Of a stretch of DNA of 64,000 bases, positions 9,195 through 30,998 are shown piece by piece. The notes under the pieces were generated by a model that was not told the DNA's origin, made no database searches, and saw only the letters and a list, made by a program, of their open reading frames with translations. The position numbers were made by a program, and so were the translations under genes. Origin of the DNA: Minutocellus sp. GHC0000111 (taxonomy: Eukaryota); the NCBI GenBank assembly GCA_977018835.1, contig OZ361260.1, positions 930,001 through 994,000 of the forward strand. The letters run 5' to 3'. The stretch's first letter is position 1; each line of letters begins with the position of its first letter.

Positions 9195-9749
9195 ATGACG
9201 GACGCTGAAATCAAGGCCAAGAAGCTCGAGGAATCCGACGACGACGACGTCCCGGATCTCGAGGAGCAGGATGAGGGTGCCGCCGCCGAGGGTGCCGAGG
9301 AGTCGGGCGAGGGCAAGCAGCTCAACCGCGCCGAGAAGAAGGCCCGGAAGATGATGCAGCGCCTCGGCATGCGCCCCGTGTCCGGCGTTGCCCGCGTCAC
9401 TCTCAAGACCGCCGGCAAGGGTGGATACTTCGCCATCGAGGGACCCGATGTCTTCGAGAAGAACGGCACCTACGTCATCTTCGGCGAGGCCCGCCAGGGA
9501 GGTGGCCTCCAGCAGCAGGCCGCCATGCAGCAGGCCAAGGCCGCTGCCGCCCTCCAGGACGATGTGGAGGTCCCCACCGTCGAGGACGCCGGTGATGATG
9601 CCGACGAGGCCGTCGATGACAGCGGCGTCGAGGGCAAGGACATCGAGCTCGTCGTGTCCCAGGCCTCCTGCTCCCGGGCCAAGGCCGTCGCCGCTCTCAA
9701 GGAGAACGACGGCGATCTGGTCAATGCAATCATGTCTCTGACAACGTAA
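9195..9749 (+). CDS. NACA: Nascent polypeptide-associated complex alpha subunit, copy 2
   Basis: Canonical-length NAC + UBA domains; strong C/G-ending codon bias. Confidence 0.95.
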   Translation: MTDAEIKAKKLEESDDDDVPDLEEQDEGAAAEGAEESGEGKQLNRAEKKARKMMQRLGMRPVSGVARVTLKTAGKGGYFAIEGPDVFEKNGTYVIFGEARQGGGLQQQAAMQQAKAAAALQDDVEVPTVEDAGDDADEAVDDSGVEGKDIELVVSQASCSRAKAVAALKENDGDLVNAIMSLTT

Positions 9750-13926: not shown

Positions 13927-16869
13927 TTAATGTCTTTGCTCTCCTGGGCTCGTCTCATTGGTTGTCCATTCGAGATCACAAACAACCGAGACATGATCCG
14001 ATGGCATGAATTCATTTGGCATAGCCACATATCGACTAATCTCGTCAGCGTTGGGCATTGGTGCTGCCTTCTTGGGCCTGAATCCATACCGCTCATGCTC
14101 CGATATTTCGGAAGCCAACACGTAATCGAGAGTCTCAACAAAGTCCACAGCGAAATTGGTGAACTCGGGCATGTCGGGACATCCTGAAACGAGGTTGGGA
14201 AATGAGGGAGGTAGCACAATCGGAGGGGGGTGAAATGGCTCGGTAAATGAGTCATCAGCGAGGGATTCTTCATCTTCGTGAGCCTCTTCAAATGTTTCCT
14301 CGACGTAGAGAGGGTCCTCTTCTGTATCGGCGGTGGCTTCATTGCCGACGTAGCCATGATCTAGCATCCAGGACGTGTCGCCCATCTCCCAGCGATAATC
14401 GTGGAGGTGCTTCCAAGTTTCGTGGTGACTGTCCACCGCCCTCGTGAACAATAGCTGGACGGCTCCGCATAAAGGAGCGGAATTCAAGTCACCGCAAAGC
14501 ACAAGAGGGTATGGATCTGACCCATCTTGACGACGAACCTCATCAATCTTTTTGCATACCACGTAGGCCTGCATGGCTCGTATATGGTCCGCCATAGGGT
14601 GATAAAACAAATGAGTATTTGCCAGTATCATTCGTTTGGGCTTCGAAGCGGCGTTGGCGTTTGTGGCATCATCTCTGGGATTCTTCAAAGTCAAATTTGC
14701 AACTTGAAGGATTTGACCCGTCTTCTCCCTGGCAATGCGCCGCAATTCATCGTGCTTGCCCATCAAATCGAGAATTTCATCCATCGAATTCCACTTATTG
14801 AGCTGCTTGTTTCCGGCATCTTCACTATTGTCATCAGTAGAGCCAAAATTACCTTTTAGGAGGTGATCTTCATGCTCTGCAAAGAGGTCGCGAATCGAAA
14901 TCGTCTTCGTGTCGAATTCAGAAACCTCCTCAAAGCACGATGTGCTCCAAAACATTGCACACCCCTCCTGCTGCGTAGATGCCTTGTTACTGTAGAAGCC
15001 TTGATAGCCCTTGCTCTCGAGAACAGGTCGAAGAAGAGTATCGTAGATCGATGTATCCACTTCTTGGAGGCAAATGACGTCAGCGTTGTATGCCAAAATC
15101 TCGTAGATTAGCATTGGCATTCGTCGCCAACGCATGAGATGACTGAGATCACAATGTGCATACATCAAGTGTTGGTCAACATCCCTGGAGGTGTACAAAT
15201 CCGCTAGGATATTGTATGTGAGAACTCGGAGGTCGTCTCGTTCCGAGGCCGATCTCTTCTGAGTCCAGCCATCTCGGACTGGAGAGACAATCGGCATCCA
15301 CGGCAAAGGCTCGACAAGATTCTTGAAACGATATGCTTCCTCACAACCCCGACCATCATGCCCAGGCCTGGTAGGAACAATAAGAACCGACAATGACTTG
15401 CCAACGTCCTCGGCTTTTGGAGTGTAGCTCCTGTTGTCCTTCGAGACAAGCTCACCGCTGACATACCAATTGATCACAGCTCGAGACGCAAAAATGAGCT
15501 CGGTCTCGATCACAAGTGGCACCCCCACGAACACCTGAGCCTCAAATTTTTCCTATAAATGGGCATAGAAGGGTGCGAAGCAGAGAATTAGCAATTATTG
15601 CAGTGAACATGATCGACAAGCACGCACAGTTACAAGTATACTTACGAATATTTGGACTCGCAGAATTGTAGGCGGGCAACACACTACATCTAAGTGAATG
15701 TAGCTGTCCAGCGAGTCGTCTTCGACGTCTGGATTCAAAACCGATACACCGACACGATTTCTCTGATCGGGATGGAGTTCGTATTCATAAGCTACCTTTC
15801 GCCAGAGCTCGGCATTTGTTAAGCCTGACAAATCTATTTCCTGCAGCTTATCGCCGTTGTCCCATTCATCTTTGGCATTGGCCTTGACAACCATTGAGCT
15901 CGAAGCAGTGACATTCTGAGTTGCGATATTTTCGGTCCTCTTCTTGTTTTGTCTCTTGCCTCTACCGCATCTATGAGTAACTGTTTGCATCTTCTTTTCG
16001 GTTGATAGCTCTAATCTACGCAGTGTTCTTAGCGCACTTTCGTCGGCATCTCGTTTCATGTGGATAAAGAGCAGTTGTGAGGAGCCTTCTTCAGTATCCG
16101 GCGAAGTACTCGACGCACCCACTGACCCCGATTCGGAATTAATTTCTGAGTTGCTTCCACTCCCACTCCCGCTCCCAGGACCGTGAATACTCCGTTGAAT
16201 ATTGACAAAGCTTGGTATGTGCTGACGGAATAGGAACACATCCAAGGTCACCAACAGGTCGCTCTCTCCACCCGATCCAGATAAATCATACTGGCATCCA
16301 TCTTGATCAGCTGGAGCGAGACTGAGAACGTCGCTGCAGACCCCCTCCGATCCCTTCCGTTCTATGACTGGCACCTTGGTGATAGGCTCAACGACCCCAC
16401 CCTCCAAACTGGATGGGTCGATCGCCCACTTGGGCTTGGAAGACTCATATTCGCTAAACGTCTTGGGTAAGATCCTGGCAACCAGTCGGCCAGACCACCC
16501 CCAAGTTGAAGATGTAGCAGACACTGCAGCTACATCATTTTTCAATGTTCGCCGTGCGCTTGTCGATGCCGCCAATCGGGCCTGAGAGATCATCGAGGGT
16601 GACTCTCCTTCTCTCTTCAGATATCGTTCGCTGTACGATGGCTCCTCTTTCTGTTGCTCTCGGTCTGACGCTTCACTCTCTTTCGCCGAAAGGAAACTTT
16701 CACTGCCGCTGCCGTTATTATTTGTGGTATCGCTACGGCCTCTTGATGACGATATTGGCGGTCGTAGCGGACTGGTTTTGGCGCTGCCCCACGTCTTGCC
16801 ACTATTGCTTTTGCTGCCTGCACTTGTTCCGGATGATAAGAATGCCTGAACAATCCCCCGCCCAACCAT
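13927..16869 (-). CDS. EEP-family nuclease, 2',5'-phosphodiesterase 12 / CCR4-Angel-like (intron 15553-15645; start uncertain)
   Basis: RVLTYNILAD, DVICLQEVD, ANTHLFYHP, LCGDLNS, FTNF..TLDY and PSDHVSVVCD catalytic motifs. Confidence 0.85.
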
Positions 16870-17295: not shown

Positions 17296-17574
17296 GGAGA
17301 GGTCGGAAAAAAATCTCGATCGGCGAAGTTCGTCATCGCAACACGGAATCCTTTTTTACTTTATTTTTTCCGGCGGAAAGATTTCTTTTTCCGCGGAAGA
17401 AAAGGGCGAGGATTTTTTTCCGGCGGAAGATTTTCACATGAAAGTGTTCAAAACAGCAAGGAAAATTTTGGCGAAGTCGGAAAAAGACTTCGCCAAAACT
17501 TTCCGACGGAAAAATAAATCTCTCCGCGGAAACTTCTTCTCAAGAAAATCTTCCGAAAATTTTCCGACCTCTCC
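17296..17574. mobile_element. MITE-like foldback element with 15-bp terminal inverted repeats
   Basis: GGAGAGGTCGGAAAA (17296-17310) and TTTTCCGACCTCTCC (17560-17574); internal 13-bp hairpin; no TSD recognised. Confidence 0.55.
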
Positions 17575-17731
17575 AGAGAGTGGTGGACGGCATGACAGAC
17601 GTTTTTCGATCGAATGCGAGAAGTCAAGGTGCAAGGCTGAGAGAGCTGGCCGAGAGCGAGAGCATAGCGACAGAGTACAGAGTAGCAGGCCGGTACATAC
17701 ATCCGTACCAGCTGCGTTGGTGAAAGGTGCA

Positions 17732-18826
17732 ATGGGGAAGAAAAAGGGCGGCGGCAAGCAGGCCAAGGGCTCGGCAGGTGGTGGCAAGAAGAAGAGAGGT
17801 GGGAAATATGCTGCCATGGAAGACGAAAATAGCGATGACGCCTCATCGCAACCAAGACAGTCACAGGGCAGACGTGGCAAGAAAAAGACGAGGGGAGGCA
17901 ACAAGGCGAGGAATCAACAAATGATGCACGACGACGACGCTTTTCGAAAAACTCTTCTGGCCCAAGGGTCCTTCAGCATTAACGAGATGGCGGCGGATGG
18001 CAATTGTTTGTTCCGATCGCTATCCGACCAGTTATTTGGAGACTACGGCAATCGGCACGATGTTATTCGCCAGAATGTGTGCAGCTTCCTCGAAGATAAC
18101 GAGGAAGAATTTGCGGTATTTCTACTGCTGGACGAACACGATGAGGACGTTGCCGATTTTGACACCTACGTCGGTAGGATGAAGGAGGATGGCGAGTGGG
18201 GTGGAAATGTGGAGCTAGTGGCGGCCGCAAGATTTTATCGAAGGACGATTACGGTGTACAGTCCAACGGGCGCCTTTTCGATCGAGAGTGGCCATGACGA
18301 AGAGTCGGGCGATAAGCTATTGCTATCGTATCATGGGCAGGACCACTACAACAGCATCCGAGACGAAAATACCAAGATCAAACCCATGAGTGTTTCTACT
18401 GATACCAATGGTAGAACCAAGAATTCCAATGGTGGTGGTGGTGGTGGTGGTGGCCGAAAGAAGAAAAAGAAGAAGGACAAGAGCGGATTGGAGGACGATG
18501 AAAAGAAGGATGATTTTGACGAGGGTACGTCTCGTGCTGATGATGATAAAAGTCACTGTGATGATGAAGGCGACAGCGCTGTTGCTGAAGACAAGCAGCA
18601 ACAGAACCAAAAACCAGAGAAGACTTTGCGGAAGAACAATCCTTGTCCCTGCGGAAGCGGGCTACGGTACAAAAAATGCTGCCTCGCTGCGGAAAAGAGC
18701 AAGGCCCGGGCTGCCAAATGGAAGGAGAAGCATGGAATAAACGGAGATGATGGGGAGGCAGGAAAAAATGACAGCGAAGGCGAAACCGACGAAGTGGAAG
18801 GAAGTTTTAGGGTGCTAAAAATATAA
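17732..18826 (+). CDS. OTU-family deubiquitinase (OTUD3-like) with C-terminal SEC-C zinc motif
   Basis: DGNCLFRSLSDQ, WGGNVEL, LSYHGQDHYNS; RKNNPCPCGSGLRYKKCC. Confidence 0.9.
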   Translation: MGKKKGGGKQAKGSAGGGKKKRGGKYAAMEDENSDDASSQPRQSQGRRGKKKTRGGNKARNQQMMHDDDAFRKTLLAQGSFSINEMAADGNCLFRSLSDQLFGDYGNRHDVIRQNVCSFLEDNEEEFAVFLLLDEHDEDVADFDTYVGRMKEDGEWGGNVELVAAARFYRRTITVYSPTGAFSIESGHDEESGDKLLLSYHGQDHYNSIRDENTKIKPMSVSTDTNGRTKNSNGGGGGGGGRKKKKKKDKSGLEDDEKKDDFDEGTSRADDDKSHCDDEGDSAVAEDKQQQNQKPEKTLRKNNPCPCGSGLRYKKCCLAAEKSKARAAKWKEKHGINGDDGEAGKNDSEGETDEVEGSFRVLKI

Positions 18827-19453
18827 AAATGACAATTGGATCTAGCTACTTAGATCTATCTCAGTACTGGTGGATTCCTCTAGAGTTGACTTTAGATCTA
18901 GTTACGTAGGAATATGTACCGGTATGCAGCATGTCAACACACTTGTAGCGCAAAACATGCAGCATTCGTACCAGTATTTTCTGGAGTTGCAAAATTCTTA
19001 AAATGGAGAAATGAACTTTTGAGAGCACTTTGGTCGGAAAGACTGACACACGTCATCTACGACTACGTAGACCCTACGCTAAAATGCCTGAGCACGCGTT
19101 CAATGCGTGTTTAGTGCTGATGCGGTGATGTTCTAGTGGCTAACGCAAGCTCAGGGAGGGGGTACCCATCTGCGCGCATAGAGATAGTTTGCTAGATTTC
19201 CTTTGTTCCGGCACGTAGTCAGATTCGTGTGGATAGTTAGTTGCGCTACAGCAGATGATGATGATGGCCCGGGTGCCCCGATGAGTTGTTGAATGCGAGC
19301 AGAAGCATGTTGTTGTTAAAGTCTAAGTAACGGGTGTGTTTTTATCATGTGTAGATCTACATGTAGTGGTTTTAGAAGGCAGTTTCAACACCATGGCACT
19401 TCGTGCTAGTTTTCTTTTGGAAACACTATGGCACTTCGTGCTGCTATGTTCGC

Positions 19454-19655
19454 TGTTGATGCCGTGGGATATGTACGTACGTATACATACGTACGGTACG
19501 TACGGTGATCAGACCACTGAGACTCAGTGCCCTCTCCTGACCGTTGATCCATGGGCCAACGACATCTCCGATGGCCCATTTTTCATCTACGTAGGTCCTA
19601 TTAACCTCTACTAGCTATATCTATCTAGCTTAGCTTTAGGACCTCTTACTTAGCA
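19454..19655 (+). repeat. 5' LTR (202 bp)
   Basis: TGTTGATGCC...CTTACTTAGCA, near-identical to 25464-25661. Confidence 0.95.
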
Positions 19656-19947
19656 GACCTACGTGATACATCTTTTCCACCCGTGCTCGCCCCATTTCGG
19701 TTCGCACCTCACCGGTTTGTGTCTTGGGTTCTCACTCGTCACGCAAGAAAAACCGACACATCTTCAATCGGCCAAAACGACCGTTTCTTTCGACAATATT
19801 GGAACGACGATCCAATCCCTTCCCCGAAAGTCCTGACCAGATCGACCCATCCAATCGATCACACTTCTCTGGATCGAACCTTCTGTCGATCACACGTCTC
19901 GCAGCAACACCGCCGTGCTGCCTGTCTTCGCTGACTGAAACACCAGC

Positions 19948-21230
19948 ATGAATCCCGACGCAGTTTTTGGCCAACCTCTCGGCGCAGCGCCGATTCTCCC
20001 CACCAAGTTAATCACACGTATGAATGACCCAGGACAACCTCCCCAACGCGAGCGTGTTGCCAAAGCGCTCAAGGAACTTCAACAAGCGGCGGCCAGCATT
20101 CCAGCAGGGGGCACAATGACCACAACCTCGGCCATTTGGGCCTCGTCGTCAGCGATGCCGAATGCACCACCAAAAGTGACGGCCGACCACATGTGCCTCC
20201 GGCAAATCCTGGCCCCAGCCCCACCATTCCCGCCGTGGCCAATCTAGACCAACGCGATCGTGCAATCCGGCGACATCACATCGAAAAGGGCCACTACAAC
20301 TTGTACGAGCAAGTCAACACGGCGCTCAAGAATCTCCTCCTCGACTCGATCGACGCCGTCTACATCAATCATCTCGAAGATGACATGCTCGGTTTCCAGC
20401 CAGTCACCATCCGCCAAATCATCGACAGCATCACCGATCGCTACTTGAAATTCAACGAGACTCAGAAGGAGGAATTAGAGAAGCAGCTCGAGAAGCAGCA
20501 CGACGGGGGACCCATCGACACCCACATCGCCATGTTCAACAAAGTCTTCAAGGCGTTTGAAACGGCCGGCGAACCCTTCACCAACAAGCAAAAGGTCTCC
20601 AAGTTCTACCGCTCCGTGCGCAGGTTCTCATTGGCAAAGAAGGCATGCGAGGACTGGGACGACAGACCGGAGGCCGAACGCACGTGGGCCAACATGCAGT
20701 CAGACTTCCGCGATTGGTGTGATAAGAAGATGGCCAATGCCACCACCGAAGCGGCAGGATATCATGGCGCGAATTTGGCCTCATCGGCCTCGGACGATCC
20801 ATTTCTTTCTCGAGCCGATCTCCTTTTGGCTGATACCACCGAAGCCCTCAAGACCAACCAAGCCATGATGGCGAACCTCGCCAAAAAGAGCAACGAGAAG
20901 GATGATACCATTGCCAAACTTCGCCAAGAAATAGCTTCACTCAAGGCCGAGAACCGCGTTCTGCGTGAGGGACGCAACCATGCTGGTGGCAGTGGAGGCT
21001 ACCGCGGCGGTGGCCAGCAGAACGGCGCCGGCCACTTCCCAGGCCAAGGTCCTAACCTCAACCGCCAGGAGAAGCGGGAACTGCAGTCGATCCTCCCCAG
21101 AGGCCATTATTGCCACACGTGCGGCTATTCGTCCAACCACCCCAGCTTTGAATGCACTTGCAAAGGGCCCAACCACGTTGATAACGCCACCAAGTACAAT
21201 CCTTGCGGTGGTAGCTCGCGTCGTAACTGA
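19948..21230 (+). CDS. gag: Copia gag (1-nt frameshift in G run at ~20107-20111)
   Basis: ASIP..GHLGLVV motif split across two frames; C-terminal YCHTCGY..H.SFEC knuckle-like motif. Confidence 0.8.
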
Positions 21231-24200
21231 GCGGGAGGGACGGTGGACATTAATCAGCATAAAATAGAGGATAGTGTGTCTGAATCCACCTCCTCCCCGC
21301 CTTCGTTAGCTTTTCTTACGTCAAAATGCAAACCTCCAACTCAAGAGCCAATCGTCCTCGCAGCAGATACTGGAACGACGGGACATTTTGTCCAGAAGCC
21401 CCAATGCCTATCGTACGATGGCCCTATTTTCAACGTCCAACAGACAGCAATTCCTGTCAGCGTCACCCTTCCGGATAATAGCACAATGACGAACACCCAC
21501 GAGGCCACGCTTCGCCTCCCTGGGGTTTCCCCATCGGCTAGCAAGGCCTATATTTTCAATAATATGGCATCATCGCTCCTGTCGATTGGGCAGCTGTGTG
21601 ACGATGGATGCATTGCCACTTTCGATAAGGATTCGGTAGTCATCGCCAAGGACAATACCACCGTCATTTTGCAAGGTAAACGAGACCCCTCAACGAAATT
21701 GTGGATGGTAGATCTAAATTGCTCGCCCACCATGTCGCCGCTCCCCGGCCCCAACGTCATCCAACATGCTGCCAACGCCGCAATTGCCCAGGAGACGGTT
21801 CCGGAACGTGTAGCCTTTTTACATTGGTGCGCTGGCAGTCCTCAGCTATCTACCTGGTGCAAATCAATCGATGCGGGATTTTATAGATCTTGGCCAGGCC
21901 TCACATCAAAGCTTGTACGTAAGCACATGCCACAGTCGACACCGATGATTAAAGGTCACTTAGACCAGCAGCGCAAGAACATCAGGTCGACCAAGCCCAA
22001 ACGGTCGATGGCTACGCCAAAGTCTCTCCCTGGGGTGGACGAAACCGAGCAGGATCTCCACCCGGCACAACACCAACTGCGCACCAACTATGTCTTTGCT
22101 GATTGTCATGACATAACGGGCCAGATCTTCTCAGATCAGCCCGGCCGTTTCTTGGTATCGTCTATTTCTGGCCACCAGTACATAATGGTCTATGACTATG
22201 ACTCCAACAGCATCTTGGCCGAACCAATGAAAAGCCGATCGGGAACGGAAATGCGCCGAGCGTACCAAACTATTTTCGAATACCTCTCCAAGCGAGGATT
22301 TCGCCCAAAATTGCAACGATTGGATAATGAAGTGAGTCGAGAGCTGAAGGAGTTCATGGAAGAAAAGGATGTAGATTTTCAATTGACCCCAACGCACTCC
22401 CACCGCCGAAATGCGGCCGAACGAGCCATTCGAACCTTTAAGAATCATTTCATTGCGATTCTCTGTGGTACCGATCCCGACTTTCCCCTCATCTTGTGGG
22501 ATAAATTGCTGGAGCAGGCGGTAATGACCCTCAATTTCCTGAGAGCATCCCGAGTCAACCCTCGACTATCAGCGTACGAGCAACTCAATGGCGGCTTTGA
22601 TTTCAATCGCACGCCTCTCGGCCCCCTCGCATGCAAGGTCATCTTTCACGAGATGCCCTCGGCACGCGGCTCTTGGTCCCCGCATGGCGTTGATGGGTAC
22701 TATGTCGGTCCAGCCATGGAACACTACCGGTGTTACAAGGTTTGGATTGAGGAAACTCGGGCGGAACGCACTGGTAACACACTCGTCTGGCTCCCCAAAA
22801 TGATTCCGGTACCCAAAACGTCGTCGGCCGATGCAGCAATAGTCGCAGCTCATGAACTCCTGCACGCTCTACAGAATCCACATCCAGCGGCACCCCTTGC
22901 TCCCCTTCGAGACGAGCATCGTCAAGCTTTAGAAAAGCTCTCCGAGATTTTCAACAGCGTGACCCCAGCAGAATCTGCCACCTCCGCCTCTGATGAGACG
23001 ATGCAGACAACCGCAGCTCCGAGGGTGCTGGAGAACGATGACGACTCCCAACGATTCCGCCTCGGTACCATCGTCGCCAAAGTGTTTGGAGATCGCAATT
23101 ACAAGGGTAGAGTCGTTGCATTTGACAAGAAGTATAAGTACTACAAAATCAAATACGAGGACGACGACGTAGAAGAGATGAACGAGACTGAAGTAGGCCG
23201 TCACCTTGTCTCCAACCCCAACGCTCCGTTACCTCAGCCCCAGCAACCTCCGAGGGTGGCAAAATCCTCCACATATGATGCAGCCACCACTAAAAGCCGT
23301 CGATCACGTCGATCCAACGCGCCACCTCGCTCGTCAGTTTCTTCCAACTACTACAATCCTTTGGCTGCAGCAGACGAGCCCAACGGCGACGATGATGATA
23401 ATCATGACGACGATGCAACCGTCGTAACATCCAATCAAAGTTCCAATGCCCCCACCTCCCGTCGGCAACGTAAACGCAAGTCTCCAACGATCGACACCAC
23501 TCCAACATTACCAGCTCCAGCAAAATCGACAAGCAAGTCCAAACCATCGACCGCCAAACCACCTCGACGACGATCATACCGTCAGCGAGGGTACATTCCA
23601 CATCGGAACCCTCCCCCACGGCCATCATCTCGTCGTAGTACCCACCACGTGGCCAACATGGCAGCTTTCTCGCCTTTACCAAACCTCCAACACTTTGCTA
23701 ACGCCGTCGTCCATCCCGATACTGGTGCAATGCTTGAATACCGCGACCTCCTCAAAACGAACATGAGGGACCAATTCATTCAAGCAAACACCGATGAAAT
23801 TGGACGGCTAACGGACGGCCGAGTTGGAAACAGTGCTAGCATTCCCTCCAACACAATGGCTTTCGTCCACTGGTCCGAACTACCTCGGGGGGAAAAAGCC
23901 ACATACCTCCGCATTGTCGCCGACTATCGCTCCCATAAACCAAATCCCAATCGAGTTCGATGGACTGCAGGAGGCGACAAAATTCATTACCCTGGTACAG
24001 TCTCGACCCCGACCGCTGAAATGTTGACTGCAAAGTTACTTTTCAACAGCGTCATCTCTACAGACAACGCTCGTTTCATGGGAATTGATATCAGTGACTT
24101 CTATCTCAATAGCACCATGCCAGAGCCAGAATGGATGTGGGCGCCAGTAGCTCTCATCCCCGACGAAGTCATGGAAGCCTACGACCTCCATGACAAAGTA

Positions 24201-25415
24201 AAGAATGGTCGAGTATTGGTCAGAATCAATGGCGGAATGCATGGATTACCCCAGGCAGGGTGCCTAGCCTACAATCAACTTGTCAAGCATCTCAAACCCC
24301 ATGGCTATTTCCCTTGCAAGCGTACTGCCGGCCTTTGGAGGCACAAAACCCGCCCAATTACCTTTTGCCTAACCGTTGACGATTTTGGAGTAAAGCATGT
24401 CGGGAAAGAGCATGCAGACCATCTCATTCAGGCCCTCAACTCCAAGTATAAGATCACTACCGATTGGGAAGGCCGACTTTATTGTGGCATTCAACTCGAG
24501 TGGAACTACGAGGCCAAATGGGTGGATCTATCTATGCCTAACTGCGTCAAGGAGATGCGCCACAAGTTCCAACACGACCGCCCCTCACGGCCCGAGCATG
24601 CGCCATATCGATGGAATCTTCCGACGCATGGCCCGGGACCCCAGCTGCCAGAACCGGAAGACGACTCACCACCACTCGACGCCAAAGGCATCAACGAAAT
24701 TCAACAGGTGGTGGGCAGCTCCTTGTACTATGGTCGAGCAATTGATTCAACAATTTTACCGGCGCTCAACAGCATCTCAGCGGAACAATCCAAAGCTACC
24801 GAGCGCACTCGACAAGATGCCAAGAAGCTTCTAGATTACCTTGCAACCCATCCCGACGCAGTCATTCGACACGTCAAGTCAGACATGATCCTACATGTGC
24901 ATAGCGACGCCTCCTGCTTGTCAGCCCCGAAATCAAGAAGCAAGCTCGGAGGGTGCTTCTACCTAAGCTCCCGACCTAAGGACCCGCACCGCCAGCCTGA
25001 CTCAAGTGATCCCATGCCACCAATGAATGGAGCCATCCTCGTCAATGCCAATATCATCAAGCATGTAATGTCCTCAGCCGCTGAAGCCGAATTGGGAGGA
25101 CTGTTTTTCAACATGAAAGATGCAGCACCAATCCGGGCAGCACTAGAAGAAATGGGTCACCCGCAGCCCCCTACTGCTATCGTCGTTGACAACTCTACTA
25201 CAGCATCTGGAATCGCCAATAAAACCGTCAAGCAAAGACGGACTAAGGCTATGGACATGAGATTCTACTGGGTCCAAGATCGCACAGAGCAACGACAATT
25301 CCAGGTGTGCTGGCGGAAAGGAGCGCAAAATTTGGCCGATTATTTTACAAAGCACCATCCCGCCCGCTACCATGTCGACATGCGACCAGTCTACTTACAT
25401 GTGGATTCCAATTAG
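21231..25415 (+). CDS. pol: Copia pol polyprotein (protease, integrase, Tudor-like insert, RT, RNase H)
   Basis: ADTGTTGHF protease; SDQPGRF/RLDNE/NAAERAIRTFKNHF integrase; LTVDDFGVK RT; HSDAS/SSAAEAE/NLADYFTKHH RNase H. Confidence 0.95.
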   Translation, partial: AGGTVDINQHKIEDSVSESTSSPPSLAFLTSKCKPPTQEPIVLAADTGTTGHFVQKPQCLSYDGPIFNVQQTAIPVSVTLPDNSTMTNTHEATLRLPGVSPSASKAYIFNNMASSLLSIGQLCDDGCIATFDKDSVVIAKDNTTVILQGKRDPSTKLWMVDLNCSPTMSPLPGPNVIQHAANAAIAQETVPERVAFLHWCAGSPQLSTWCKSIDAGFYRSWPGLTSKLVRKHMPQSTPMIKGHLDQQRKNIRSTKPKRSMATPKSLPGVDETEQDLHPAQHQLRTNYVFADCHDITGQIFSDQPGRFLVSSISGHQYIMVYDYDSNSILAEPMKSRSGTEMRRAYQTIFEYLSKRGFRPKLQRLDNEVSRELKEFMEEKDVDFQLTPTHSHRRNAAERAIRTFKNHFIAILCGTDPDFPLILWDKLLEQAVMTLNFLRASRVNPRLSAYEQLNGGFDFNRTPLGPLACKVIFHEMPSARGSWSPHGVDGYYVGPAMEHYRCYKVWIEETRAERTGNTLVWLPKMIPVPKTSSADAAIVAAHELLHALQNPHPAAPLAPLRDEHRQALEKLSEIFNSVTPAESATSASDETMQTTAAPRVLENDDDSQRFRLGTIVAKVFGDRNYKGRVVAFDKKYKYYKIKYEDDDVEEMNETEVGRHLVSNPNAPLPQPQQPPRVAKSSTYDAATTKSRRSRRSNAPPRSSVSSNYYNPLAAADEPNGDDDDNHDDDATVVTSNQSSNAPTSRRQRKRKSPTIDTTPTLPAPAKSTSKSKPSTAKPPRRRSYRQRGYIPHRNPPPRPSSRRSTHHVANMAAFSPLPNLQHFANAVVHPDTGAMLEYRDLLKTNMRDQFIQANTDEIGRLTDGRVGNSASIPSNTMAFVHWSELPRGEKATYLRIVADYRSHKPNPNRVRWTAGGDKIHYPGTVSTPTAEMLTAKLLFNSVISTDNARFMGIDISDFYLNSTMPEPEWMWAPVALIPDEVMEAYDLHDKVKNGRVLVRINGGMHGLPQAGCLAYNQLVKHLKPHGYFPCKRTAGLWRHKTRPITFCLTVDDFGVKHVGKEHADHLIQALNSKYKITTDWEGRLYCGIQLEWNYEAKWVDLSMPNCVKEMRHKFQHDRPSRPEHAPYRWNLPTHGPGPQLPEPEDDSPPLDAKGINEIQQVVGSSLYYGRAIDSTILPALNSISAEQSKATERTRQDAKKLLDYLATHPDAVIRHVKSDMILHVHSDASCLSAPKSRSKLGGCFYLSSRPKDPHRQPDSSDPMPPMNGAILVNANIIKHVMSSAAEAELGGLFFNMKDAAPIRAALEEMGHPQPPTAIVVDNSTTASGIANKTVKQRRTKAMDMRFYWVQDRTEQRQFQVCWRKGAQNLADYFTKHHPARYHVDMRPVYLHVDSN

Positions 25416-25463
25416 GACTCTACATGTAGATTCAATGGCACTAGTCATTGATCTGCGAGGGTG

Positions 25464-25661
25464 TGTTGATGCCGTGGGATACGTACGTACGTATACATAC
25501 GTACGGTACGTACGGTGATCAGACCACTGAGACTCAGTGCCCTCTCCTGACCGTTGATCCATGGGCCAACGACATCTCCAATGGCCCATTTTTCATCTAC
25601 GTAGGTCCTATTAACCTCTACTAGCTATATCTATCTAGCTTAGCTTTAGGACCTCTTAGCA
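25464..25661 (+). repeat. 3' LTR (198 bp)
   Basis: Differs from the 5' LTR by 2 transitions and a 4-bp indel. Confidence 0.95.
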
Positions 25662-25699
25662 TTCGCGTGTCTTTACGCGGGGAGCACTTTGGTTGTGGA

Positions 25700-26500
25700 A
25701 TGGAAGCGATGCGCTGCTGGACGTTTTGATGTGCGCTGGTTGGCCGTTTGACGTGCTGGTTGTTGGAAGACATGCTGCTGCTGCGGCGGCGCACCAATCC
25801 GATTGCACTCTTGAATAGTTACAATTAGTTGAAAAATATTTAAAGATTCACATAGAGGAGTGGTGTAGCAGCATGTCAAAAATGAATGACATGCTTAAAG
25901 AAAATGAAATGATGTTGACACAAGATCCACTACAACAATTGCGCGTCGTGTTCGGTCTCCATTTGTCCCGCCTGTTATTTGGTGGTTCGCGGTTGATGAG
26001 GTTTGATGTGCTGCCGCTGCCGCTGTGGTGTGATTGCTGCTGCAGTTTGACATGCTGGACGTTTTTAGACATGCTGGTCTGTGTTGATGTGCTGCTGGCG
26101 GTTTGATCAGCTGCCGCTATGGATGAGGTTTGATGTGCTGCGGGTGGTCTGATGTGCTTCGGCTTGACATGCTGGACGGTTTGACATGCTGCCGCGGTTG
26201 ATGAGGTTTGATGTGCTGCCGCTGCCGCTGTGGTTTGATTAATGCTGCGGCTTGACATGCTGGACGTTTTTAGACATGCTGGTCCATGCTTGGCGTTTTG
26301 ATGTGCTGGTCGATTTCTTGATATTTGATGACATGCGGGTAGAATTGATTTGCTGCGGTTCGATACGCTGAACGTTTTGACATGCTGCGGGTGGTGAGTA
26401 TGGTTTGATGTGCCGCTGCGGTTTGATTGCTGCTGCGGCTTGACATGCTGGTTGTTTTGACATGCTGCGGATTTGATGAGGCCGATTTGACATGCTGGCG
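25700..26500. repeat. Degenerate tandem repeat array (core TTTGA-[TGTG/CATG/CGTG]-CTG), TpA-depleted
   Basis: Many irregularly spaced copies of ttgatgtgctg / ttgacatgctg. Confidence 0.8.
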
Positions 26501-27149: not shown

Positions 27150-29765
27150 ATGTCGCCTCCAAGATATGGGAGCTCCGAGCATGTCGTCGCCGACGAGGGC
27201 ATTGATCAGCAGAGGCCTCGATTTCATGTCGCCGTGCCAGCCTCCCAAAAACAAAGACCACGACGAGACACAAACGCAAATGCCGAGAAGAACCGATCAC
27301 ACACAAGCAGCTCAGGTACATCGTCAGTGACCACCAGCCGCAGCTTCAACAGCAGCGAAAGCCGGCACAGCAGCCACGAGAGCTTCAGCGTTAGGAGCGA
27401 AGGAAGAATAGTAGGTAGGGGCGGTACCACTCGTGGCGGCCGTGTCCGTGGCAGGCCGTCCTCGTCAATTACATCATCGACAGCACCAAACATTGATGGG
27501 GACGAAGTCATCCGACGACGCCAGGAGCGCAAGGCACGGTCGGCTAGACTGCAATCGGACCTAGACGATCGGCAACACCATCGGCGGTCGTCGAATAACA
27601 ATCATGGAGACCAAAAATCATCGTCAGAGCGGGGTCATCCTCGCTCAGCACAGATTCCCCTTCGTGTCGATGAACATGCCAGTATCTTAGCAGACATAAC
27701 AGGCGGCGATACCAAGGAAAGAGTGAGAACTAGGAGTGCTAGTAGTAGCAAGAGCAGGCGCCGCTCGTCCATGGAACACATGGAACATGTTCCTACCTGT
27801 ACTCACGACATTCGGAGCAGAAGCAGAAGCGCGTCCCGTCAACGATCAATGGAACACGCTCCTCATGCTTCCTCGGTCAACTCAGCTACACAAACGAAGA
27901 CATCGCTTGCAACGGGCAGAGGCCGGCATCATTCGATGGAATATACTTCGAGGGAAAAGTATCATGCACGTGAAACTGCCCCCTCTCGGTCGACTACCGG
28001 TACTGCCAGCAGACGCCGTGCATCCATGGAGCATCACTTTTCTTGGAGCAATGCCCAAAAGGACACATCTGATATCTGGAGCGCATCATCCTCTCGGTCC
28101 GTTCGTGCTCATACCAAAGAATTGAGGCAAGAACACGGAAATAGTGACGACGTTCAAAGGCGATCTTCCAGCAGCACAAGCAGTGGCAATAGCCGTGTCC
28201 ATCTGCGCGCCCGTCGATCGACGTCGATGGGTCATGGAACTTTGTGCGAACAGCCCGGTGCGAATCACACTGGGATTGAACCCACACCTCCGTCTGAGGC
28301 ATCAAGCAGATACATACGAGAAGGTGCCAACGACGACACTTCCAAAAACACCCCAGGCACATCTAGTAGCGAGAATGGCCCTGGAAGACGACGACATTCC
28401 ATGGGCCATCACCGAAGTGGCCATCCCTCTTCGTCTATGACGGCACCACCTGACTCCGTTCCTATAGGGAACGAACAGTCTCAGCCTGAAAGTGAAAATA
28501 GTTCTAGCAGCAGTCGAATGCTACAGGTCCTTCGTAGGGCGTCGATGCAACACAGCATGTCATTTCGTCGACTATCTATCAGCAACCATCCACCGCCGGC
28601 TGTCAAGGAGGAGGACACAAGCCAGAAGGCCGAGCGCCGAGACAGCATTAATAGCACGTCCAGCTTCCTTTCCCTCAAGGAGGAGATTCTGCCCCCTCGA
28701 ACTTTGCGGCACGATCTAAACTCCAGTTTCCGACGTGCGTCCCTGGAATCGGAACAATGCGAAGTCCCTCCTCCATCGGCCCCGCCGCAGCGCAATCGCA
28801 CGTGGAGCGAGAATATTTCATCAGGTGGAGCCATCTTGTCAATTCTCGGGCAAGGATTTCGCCAAGAGACCGAGGCAACCGAAGACAATAGCGACGATAT
28901 ATCTGTTGCAAGCGCTAGAAGCACCAACACTTCTTCCTTGCCATCTCGCAAGAGTTCTATCTTGTCTGGCTTTATATCCAATCTCGATAAAGAAGAGGAA
29001 GCGCCGTCTTCATCCACGTCATGGCTCAGGAAGTCGAACTTCGTGTCTCACGGTGAGAAGGATGCCGACGTAGCGGTCAAGCTGGCCACGGCGCGGAAAC
29101 TAGCCGACACACTCATTGAGACCAACACCATGCTGTGCTCACAGTGGTTCCAGGGGAAGCGCAATCCGGAGGCCGATTCTCTTTCTCGTGACACCGATCT
29201 CTCTGATGCTGACCTCACGAAATTGCTTCTGTCATCTCCCGAATGTCAGCTTCCCTCAAATTTCAGGATTGCACCACTACCCAACGAGATCACTTCCTGG
29301 ATTGTCTCGCAGGCGCGGACGCTGCCCGTCAGGAAGCAGTTACAACGGCCACTGCCGAGAAGCACGCTCTCGCGTGGAGCCGCTGGACTGAGTTCCTGCA
29401 GCTCATCGGGACCGGGGACGACGTCTTCCTCGACAAGGTGTCACCCCGAGACCGAACAGTCATTCTCGGCGCCTTTGCCCACGCCGTCCGACAGGCCAGC
29501 TTTTCGGGGCCAAAGTTTTCGCGACTGGCTGCGTCGACAGTCCGAGACACCGTCTCACATGCATGCTCGTCCTTCCGGCACAACCAGCGCAGGGACCCAG
29601 GGAAAGACGACATCGGCCAGCCTTCATTCCTTCTACAGCGGCAGTTCCGAGGACACAGCCAGTCCGACCCGGCCGAGCGGCCGGAGAAGGCGATCACCTG
29701 CCGGCTCCTCCGAGAGATCGCCTCCGTCAGGGAAACGGAAGAGGACCGTGCAGTCGGGCAACTAG
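27150..29765 (+). CDS. Chimeric ORF: Ser/Arg-rich low-complexity protein fused in frame to the RNase H C-terminus of a YR retroelement
   Basis: Repeated RRxSMEH motifs up to ~29000, then SWLRKSNF...SQWFQGKRNPEADSLSRD (DIRS-type RNase H end). Confidence 0.6.
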   Translation: MSPPRYGSSEHVVADEGIDQQRPRFHVAVPASQKQRPRRDTNANAEKNRSHTSSSGTSSVTTSRSFNSSESRHSSHESFSVRSEGRIVGRGGTTRGGRVRGRPSSSITSSTAPNIDGDEVIRRRQERKARSARLQSDLDDRQHHRRSSNNNHGDQKSSSERGHPRSAQIPLRVDEHASILADITGGDTKERVRTRSASSSKSRRRSSMEHMEHVPTCTHDIRSRSRSASRQRSMEHAPHASSVNSATQTKTSLATGRGRHHSMEYTSREKYHARETAPSRSTTGTASRRRASMEHHFSWSNAQKDTSDIWSASSSRSVRAHTKELRQEHGNSDDVQRRSSSSTSSGNSRVHLRARRSTSMGHGTLCEQPGANHTGIEPTPPSEASSRYIREGANDDTSKNTPGTSSSENGPGRRRHSMGHHRSGHPSSSMTAPPDSVPIGNEQSQPESENSSSSSRMLQVLRRASMQHSMSFRRLSISNHPPPAVKEEDTSQKAERRDSINSTSSFLSLKEEILPPRTLRHDLNSSFRRASLESEQCEVPPPSAPPQRNRTWSENISSGGAILSILGQGFRQETEATEDNSDDISVASARSTNTSSLPSRKSSILSGFISNLDKEEEAPSSSTSWLRKSNFVSHGEKDADVAVKLATARKLADTLIETNTMLCSQWFQGKRNPEADSLSRDTDLSDADLTKLLLSSPECQLPSNFRIAPLPNEITSWIVSQARTLPVRKQLQRPLPRSTLSRGAAGLSSCSSSGPGTTSSSTRCHPETEQSFSAPLPTPSDRPAFRGQSFRDWLRRQSETPSHMHARPSGTTSAGTQGKTTSASLHSFYSGSSEDTASPTRPSGRRRRSPAGSSERSPPSGKRKRTVQSGN

Positions 29766-30998
29766 CAGCCGTCGGCGCCTTCTTCTTCGCGATGAGGTCT
29801 TGCGAATGCTCCAGAGTCAGCGGGGTGAGCGCAGGACCAAGCTGCTCCGCCTCCGCAATATCCAGTTCTACCGCGGCCGACGGCGCATGTGTCACAACGA
29901 CCGGTCCCTCCTCTCAGCAGACTCTGTCTCCGTCACCTTTGAGTTCCAGAAGAACGACGAGCGTGACGTCACGATTACGCAACACTGCACCCACGACGCC
30001 ACCCTCTGCCCAGTTCGAGCTTGGGCTGCCCTGGTGAAACGAGTCCTAGGGTACCCTAGTACCAACAGCGATACGCCGGTAAATGCCTTCGTGGTCAACG
30101 GCGTATTAAAATACATTCCTGCCACCCGAATAGTTGACAAGATCCGAGCGTCGGCCACAGTGATTGGAGAGGACGTCCTGGGCTGCCATCCCTCTGAATT
30201 CGGATCACACTCCATTCGCAGCGGAGCAGCAATGGCAATGTGTCTAAATGATGTTCCCACGTACACAATCATGCTGGTAGGGCGGTGGTCCAGTGACGCC
30301 TTCCTCAAGTACATCCGTCGCCAGGTCCAAGAATTTACATCCGGAGTCTCCACACGCATGATCCAACAACGAGGTAGGTTCCTTCTTCAACGTGCCCCAC
30401 GCACACTCGACGAGCCATCGCGAAGACCCAAGGACCGACCCCAAATTGCCGCCAATCCTTTGCCGGCATCAACAGTATTGGCCGAAATGCCGGCTTCGGG
30501 ACTCCAATGCCCCCCTTCGCCCTGTTCACCTAAGCACGACACACATTATTGGCCGATCTGTGCTACGGAAAGGAGGAGGGGGAGAGGGACCTCACCCTCT
30601 AAGAAGTTTCATTTACCGCCAATGCCAGCTCCAGTTCACGTAGTTTTAAACTGCATTTCATGTTCTACTAAGTTGCATAGAGTTGGGAGAATCAGCGGAG
30701 GGAGGTACTGTGTTCGATGTATCATCGTTGTGGGCACCGCACGGTGGGGATGAGCTGGCGACGGTGGTTAGCAGCAGGCACTAAAACTGCATTCCTGTAG
30801 TGCCCCCAGTTTTTCTGCTGACCACCACCTTCGCCTCCTCTCGTCTCAACTGACCAAGCCACAACCATCTGCGATTGCTGCCGTTGCAATTGCTAAGTCA
30901 GCTTACAGTACCGGCTCCCAGAGCCTGTCTCTCTCTCTCTCAGTAGTTAGTTAGTTTTAAATTCCCTCAAACCCGTCTAAGAAGTTTCATTTACCGCC
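29005..30998 (+). mobile_element. 5'-truncated tyrosine-recombinase retrotransposon (DIRS/Ngaro-like)
   Basis: RNase H tail overlapping the YR ORF; 23-bp direct repeat TCTAAGAAGTTTCATTTACCGCC at 30598 and 30976. Confidence 0.8.
29243..30530 (+). pseudogene. Tyrosine recombinase of the YR retroelement, frameshifted at ~29823 and ~30365 (end approximate)
   Basis: AFFFAMRSCE, FEFQKND, LCPVRAW, HSIRSGAAMAM and GRWSSDAFLKYIR catalytic residues spread over two frames. Confidence 0.85.

Follow-up and report, generated by a model that had tools for sequence, protein, structure and literature searches.

Covarying LTR complement in place of a tRNA primer site suggests self-priming in a CoDi-like lineage of Copia retrotransposons

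The window analyzed here, meaning the whole stretch of 64,000 nucleotides (64 kb), contains a CoDi-like Ty1/Copia retrotransposon whose 5′ LTR is followed directly by a sequence complementary to a segment of that same LTR. In 35 families such complementarity has been kept while its letters changed, and it begins at the base next to the LTR; the finding thus holds up and applies to the lineage as a whole. Judging from these sequences, we consider it probable that the lineage primes minus-strand synthesis in a Tf1-like manner, from its own RNA instead of a tRNA. The start site, the cleavage and the primer that we infer for the CoDi-like lineage are set out after the comparative evidence.

The element and its primer site

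The element occupies positions 19454–25661 and is flanked by a 5-bp target-site duplication. It has two LTRs with TG...CA ends, the target-site duplication and an integrase encoded before the reverse transcriptase, as is characteristic of Ty1/Copia elements. Its features are the following:

19449–19453, + strand: target-site duplication, left copy TTCGC, the same letters as at 25662–25666
19454–19655, + strand: 5′ LTR of 202 nt, TGTTGA...TTAGCA, with an extra CTTA near its end
19576–19587, + strand: two imperfect initiator-like start candidates, CCATT (A at 19578) and TCATC (A at 19585), both short of the full diatom TCAHW
19585–19597, + strand: predicted self-primer, a perfect 9-nt core (19589–19597) plus ATC (19585–19587) over a bulged T, with a duplex of −16.0 kcal/mol and a predicted 3′ end at C19597
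19593–19644, + strand: competing LTR-internal stem from folding, 19593–19600 with 19637–19644, sharing part of the primer
19656–19667, + strand: predicted primer-binding site GACCTACGT, extendable by GAT, directly after the LTR and without TGG
19948–21230, + strand: gag, ending with TGA in frame with pol, from three-frame translation (ORF 20385–21230)
21231–25415, + strand: pol in Copia order (protease-like motif, integrase, Tudor-like domain, reverse transcriptase, RNase H region), from the ORF, Pfam and homologues
25457–25463, + strand: purine-rich tract GAGGGTG adjoining the 3′ LTR, likely plus-strand primer
25464–25661, + strand: 3′ LTR of 198 nt, from comparison with the 5′ LTR
25662–25666, + strand: target-site duplication, right copy TTCGC, pairing with the left copy at 19449–19453

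Because of the second LTR and the TTCGC duplication, the 5′ LTR's end at 19655 is settled independently of any hairpin. A preliminary description of this DNA had placed the terminal TTAGCA there, followed by GACCTACGT rather than TGG, and had pointed out that this 9-mer (19656–19664) is the exact reverse complement of 19589–19597 and that the pairing can be extended by 3 bp over a 1-nt bulge. We confirmed the LTR end and the 9-mer match in the sequence, and the extension, formed by ATC (19585–19587) with GAT (19665–19667), appears in the predicted fold. Within the 64-kb window, the complement of GACCTACGT is present in the two LTRs only. The LTRs themselves differ by two substitutions and the CTTA added in the 5′ copy (19645–19648), which gives a loop of 58 instead of 54 nt and leaves the predicted helix unaltered; these four letters are missing at 19645 in contigs of seven of the eight sequencing runs. 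No variant was listed within 19656–19664 in the contigs of the eight runs, and in the LTR arm a single X9 contig carried C19590T (depth 13 of 180), this contig ending at 19648, before the primer site.

As a single observation, the 9-mer match in the window copy is suggestive only. Dinucleotide shuffling of the LTR, repeated 100,000 times, produced a match of this kind 137 times, and along the window a 9-mer complement within the preceding 201 nt was present at 160 of 63,790 positions. At 9 bp, the stem is also among the shortest of the lineage and falls below the 10 bp required by the screen of Neumann et al. 2019 (PMC6317226). The fold of 19560–19700 as a whole was unremarkable (z = −1.47). 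When the 5′ RNA of the window copy was folded at 20 lengths, the primer helix reached a probability of 0.74–0.99 at 18 of them and of 0.22–0.23 at the other two, where the LTR-internal stem wins; the same competing stem wins in the 3′ LTR folded without the primer site. At one fixed length, helix probability exceeded 0.5 in 33 of the 35 families, the window copy and L081 lying below this value.

Concerning the coding region, an integrase-like region lies within Pol residues 1–480, upstream of the Copia-type reverse transcriptase, for which the RVT_2 match (residues 833–1021, E 3e-5) lies under the curated cut-off. The tract GAGGGTG at 25457–25463 is the likely plus-strand primer, and of the 87 sequences scanned, 46 have a similar purine-rich motif ahead of the LTR start. 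gag is frameshifted near 20240–20270 in the window copy, as seen in three-frame translation, and Pol is altered at several conserved tyrosines, so that this copy is likely inactive. A Tudor-like domain (PF21743, E 1e-11, approximately 23064–23198, Pol residues 527–571) follows the integrase core and was found, among the 120 best homologues listed, only in the four closest; it recalls the putative chromodomain described for CoDi-A integrases (PMC2774666), and it may steer integration. The gag stop lies in frame with pol at 21228–21245, and 27 of the 30 relative families examined have an in-frame stop 235–325 codons ahead of the integrase core (20 TGA, 7 TAG), with GG 5–10 nt past that stop in 26 of these 27; together, stop and GG look like a likely signal for stop readthrough or recoding.

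The altered tyrosines follow a pattern of their own. Where two outside families both have tyrosine, counted in 16 sequences (the window pol at 21486–25415 and the proteins P0001 and P0121–P0134, i.e. the window plus 15 of the 113 members of its Pol protein cluster), cysteine was read in 99 and histidine in 71 of 428 cells, compared to 0 of 399 in a sister cluster. Both histidine and cysteine occurred at 24 of the 48 tyrosine sites, and in the same element family His>Arg was seen in 0 of 293 and Asp>Gly in 0 of 503 cells. These changes match what would be a TpA-specific hypermutation signature, fitting TA to TG or CA, a type of change that has been reported for viral DNA integrated in Bigelowiella natans (bioRxiv 10.64898/2026.01.13.699255). 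The TA steps within primer and primer site are intact in the window copy, and TA dinucleotide ratios (0.2–1.1 per 500 nt along the window) fail to separate the element from host genes. As to the surroundings, the host genes upstream of the insertion encode an exonuclease/endonuclease/phosphatase-family protein (13927–15297) and an OTU cysteine protease that carries a SEC-C motif (17438–18826), and a degenerate array of repeats, many of them TGATGTGCTG/GACATGCTG units, lies just downstream of the insertion (25740–26480). Overlapping ORFs on three frames fill 27150–30753 and gave no Pfam match; the motifs HSIRSG and GRWSS in the ORF at 29563 recall, as we presume, a tyrosine recombinase, possibly of a DIRS-like element. 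A long inverted repeat (1672–2103 and 9317–9745, 87–93% complementary, approximately 7.2–7.8 kb apart) represents either a segment duplicated in inverted orientation or the two termini of a DNA transposon.

Pairing of primer site and LTR across the lineage

Relatives of the element came from 80 metagenome loci (the best 80 of 522) and six loci from genome bins, while two scans of viral contigs returned no relatives. In many of them a whole element has collapsed to a single LTR, and these were closed at their terminal overlaps. The six bin loci (L081–L086) are CoDi-like elements or pieces in prokaryotic genome bins, L085 lying in a 162-kb contig, and most likely represent eukaryotic contamination. 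gag starts, found by profile, were matched in 50 of the 87 sequences (86 loci plus the window). With the 37 sequences lacking such a match and three situated too near the contig start left out, 47 regions, near-duplicates among them, entered a blind test in which only the longest perfect stem in approximately 520 nt upstream of gag was considered and 564 dinucleotide shuffles provided the null.

In 41 of the 47 regions, compared to 9 of the 564 shuffles, this longest stem measured 9–16 bp and had its 3′ arm directly after CA or TA. Stems of at least 12 bp were found in 25 regions and in none of the 564 shuffles, and a hexamer model derived solely from reverse-complemented LTR starts scored above 3 bits before the stem in 32 of 47 regions versus 21 of 564 shuffles. 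The best stem was located elsewhere in five regions (L032, L033, L050, L071 and L074), and the stem of L027 had 7 bp only. Where an element has its own second LTR, the register can be read directly: the stem begins at the base next to the LTR end in the window copy (9 bp), L037 (11 bp) and L039 (11 bp), and in L033, which also has two LTRs, it covers 11 positions from the LTR end with one G-U pair and one mismatch. Pairing from the first base past the LTR, as the preliminary description had it, is therefore perfect in three of these elements and imperfect in the fourth. The LTR end of the L002 family is backed by the 3′ LTRs of L007 and L021. Two loci were not counted, namely L001, the closest relative among the loci, which is without a 5′ LTR, and L058, where the LTR end is followed by an integrase fragment instead of a leader. 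TA instead of CA stands directly before the primer site in 16 of the 35 families (for example L010, L011 and L017); should they be genuine LTR ends, a non-canonical terminus would be acceptable to the integrase, and the two-LTR elements all have CA.

For covariation, 50 junctions (42 placed automatically and 8 by hand) were reduced to 35 families at less than 80% integrase identity (range 50–79%). The anchors were picked by the stem, so the resulting counts are biased towards structure and the blind test is the unbiased one. At positions 1–11, 372 of 385 cells formed Watson-Crick pairs, whereas with permuted partners the count averaged 208 and never exceeded 253 in 10,000 rounds; the covariation check that the preliminary description had proposed was thus passed. 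The duplex had a mean length of 11.1 and was at least 10 bp long in 28 of the 35 families, as against 9 bp in the window copy; the first pair was C-G in 34 of the 35, and stems were interrupted in three (L032, L033 and L071). Matches of at least 9 bp to the own LTR were present in 32 of the 35 families, compared to 21 of 1190 comparisons with the LTR of another family. Mapped on the integrase tree, of which 14 of 32 inner branches are open, positions 2–11 required 89 changes in the primer site and 84 in the LTR arm, or 91 when both were counted jointly: the two arms change together nearly always.

These data bear on several explanations other than self-priming. That the match is a chance product of a TA-rich, palindrome-rich LTR would suit the window copy, where a single 9-mer chosen after the fact has a rate of 0.1–0.25% and the fold of the region is not significant; because the relatives keep pairing with changed letters, in the blind test and in the covariation counts alike, chance is ruled out for the lineage and we assign it a probability close to nil. 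Priming by a cleaved host tRNA, either a half or another fragment, with the LTR match being secondary, has precedents in the half-tRNA priming known from several Copia lineages (PMC6317226). The families, however, contain 29 distinct primer-site 9-mers in 35, each matching its own LTR, while a tRNA primer would keep the site constant and give the LTR arm no reason to follow. The conserved site that defines the half-tRNA Copia type (Osser, Bryco, Bianca) is accordingly not what these 29 different 9-mers present. ARAGORN found no tRNA genes in the 64-kb window or the 86 relative loci. Overall, we regard a tRNA fragment as very unlikely to be the primer.

Another explanation holds that the stem is real and structural, serving in packaging or dimer formation or to hide a poly(A) signal within the 5′ LTR, while another primer is used. 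Covariation indeed demonstrates pairing rather than priming. Moreover, fungal GalEa elements, which belong to the same Copia branch, have a Conserved Hairpin Site downstream of the LTR that replaces the primer site and starts with a conserved palindrome, and their priming was left open in the description available (PMC5445492). Like GalEa, the CoDi-like elements are Branch 1 Copia elements without a tRNA primer site; unlike in GalEa, whose hairpin is described as having no complement in the LTR (PMC5445492), the LTR here holds the partner, and the sequence can change freely. Also in favor of a structural role, Tf1 requires two further duplexes beside the primer duplex, the ‘pretzel’ (PMC10085805), and in a shuffle test two such flanking duplexes were not clearly present: the leader side was at chance (216 of 300 shuffles reached its score), and the U5-side duplex was only slightly above chance (it scored 131, the shuffles 122 on average; 13 of 300 shuffles and none of 300 partner swaps came up to it). 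What argues against a purely structural stem is its register, as pairing runs from the first base past the LTR end in every two-LTR element and an LTR-type end precedes the stem in 41 of the 47 blind cases, which priming alone would demand. In addition, TGG is absent from the first 8 nt of the primer site in all 35 families. We therefore judge a structural role with another primer to be unlikely.

Transcription start and proposed priming

Along with self-priming from the element's own RNA, the preliminary description had proposed a transcription start near 19585–19589. A published diatom initiator-like motif, TCAHW, in which +1 is the base after CA, was found in 68% of 80-nt gene flanks (PMC4686930) and, being that frequent, is weak as evidence alone. 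In our families, strict TCAHW with its A 15–18 nt from the last base of the arm occurred in 25 of 35, compared to 55 of the 800 remaining 4-nt bins. When the motif was relaxed to YCAHW, a form picked after inspection of the data, it occurred at this distance in 34 of 35 families, compared to 106 of the 800 bins. The window copy is the only one of the 35 families without an initiator-like motif at 15–18 nt. Its two start candidates imply primers of 13 nt (A19585) or 20 nt (A19578), of which the former coincides with the end of the extended duplex and the latter is nearer to the spacing of the relative L049. The eight sequencing runs consist of contigs and revealed neither a start nor a poly(A) site. 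Contigs starting at 19570 were considered as RNA starts and rejected, since they overlap other contigs by approximately 30 nt and read as branch points of the assembly.

The motif can also be seen as CAT(A/T)A, a 3′-end signal, in which case the primer would be the copy of the arm at the transcript 3′ end, or a short LTR RNA acting in trans, and no Tf1-type 5′ cut would be made. The motif is often CATAA(A/T), approximately 12 nt ahead of the arm end, and in 22 of 35 families the arm is followed by an A, which resembles a poly(A) cleavage site. On the other hand, a polyadenylated end would presumably need trimming before it could prime, poly(A) was seen in 0 of the 17 loose contig ends listed (contigs being a weak test), and the motif fits the published TCAHW in the 25 families mentioned (PMC4686930). 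Taken together, we think priming from a 3′ end quite unlikely.

For self-priming from the 5′ end of the RNA, we propose the following course. Transcription would start at the initiator-like motif, approximately 15–17 nt before the 3′ C of the primer (13 or 20 nt in the window copy), and the 5′ end of the RNA would fold onto the primer site, leaving a loop of 19–71 nt (58 nt in the window copy). A nuclease, by analogy with Tf1 the RNase H of the element, would cut after that C and free a 3′-OH, from which the reverse transcriptase would copy the short loop as strong-stop DNA of 19–71 nt; for this step, the poly(A) site would have to lie downstream of the cut. Finally, plus-strand synthesis would copy the primer back into the primer site and so rewrite the site from the LTR, as is general in the replication of LTR elements. 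The coupling of the two arms almost without exception would follow from this copying. Loops down to 19–21 nt count against the scheme, as the R remaining for the first strand transfer would be very short.

CoDi identity and relation to other self-priming elements

The nearest named relatives of the element are proteins of the diatoms Phaeodactylum tricornutum and Fragilaria crotonensis, with 47–52% identity over the integrase region, and the four named matches among the best 120 homologues are all from diatoms. Because these named homologues come from diatoms, we call the element CoDi-like, and its host is probably a diatom. The best segments of L011 and L027 are 73–88% identical to P. tricornutum P0015/P0016, and both loci contain the same stem. 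Naming the CoDi family by published primers was abandoned: of three such primers scanned against the loci, only PtC34 gave a match with at most three mismatches, to L011/L027, and this is too weak for an assignment. LTR retrotransposons have been described as the most abundant transposons of P. tricornutum and as stress-responsive (PMC2806351). The words ‘tRNA’ and ‘priming’ do not occur in the main text of that CoDi paper (Maumus et al. 2009, PMC2806351), the supplement of which may list primer sites. Within the open literature, that is, outside subscription journals, GyDB and Repbase, we found no description of how CoDi or other diatom elements are primed.

The arrangement is similar to that of Tf1/Tf2 of Schizosaccharomyces pombe (Tf1/sushi, Ty3/Gypsy), whose self-priming is experimentally established and where a primer site past the 5′ LTR complements an LTR segment at the presumed 5′ end of the RNA, and the duplexes are of similar length, approximately 11–12 bp (11 nt in Tf1, PMC7175516; mean 11.1 here). 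It differs in that the predicted primer is approximately 15–17 nt long, with its first few bases usually unpaired, and in that the element has the Copia domain order and hence falls outside the Tf1/sushi group, which consists of Ty3/Gypsy chromoviruses with RT-RH-IN order.

Among Copia elements, the preliminary description had held that only whole or half tRNAs are known as primers, which is contradicted by the self-priming predicted for the TAR lineage by Neumann et al. 2019, who also cite earlier proposals for Houba and Osr-1 (PMC6317226). The CoDi-like lineage is hence not the first Copia case for which self-priming is proposed. As in TAR, a plant Ty1/Copia lineage, an LTR-complementary site replaces the tRNA site (PMC6317226). 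Published work places CoDi in Copia Branch 1 together with Ty1 and GalEa (PMC2774666, PMC5445492), and because TAR is absent from the listing of that branch, self-priming in CoDi likely had an origin separate from that in TAR. Going further, we think it rather probable that a diatom Copia lineage independently evolved a minimal, tRNA-free form of self-priming, with one 9–16 bp duplex and no pretzel, a strong-stop DNA down to approximately 20 nt and a site that is rewritten in each cycle. If true, self-priming would have originated here for a third time, Tf1/sushi and TAR being the earlier cases.

So far, experiments have demonstrated self-priming in a Gypsy element alone; for one plant Copia lineage it has been predicted. 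The dozens of joint arm changes on the tree provide strong comparative evidence that a Copia reverse transcriptase/RNase H can self-prime. They also bear on the question of whether hairpin priming, proposed as a hypothesis to be ancestral to tRNA priming (PMC3601003), is indeed ancestral or has arisen repeatedly. Annotation filters that demand a tRNA primer site would miss such elements, and, with close relatives occurring in the transformable model diatom P. tricornutum, the primer should be directly sequenceable.
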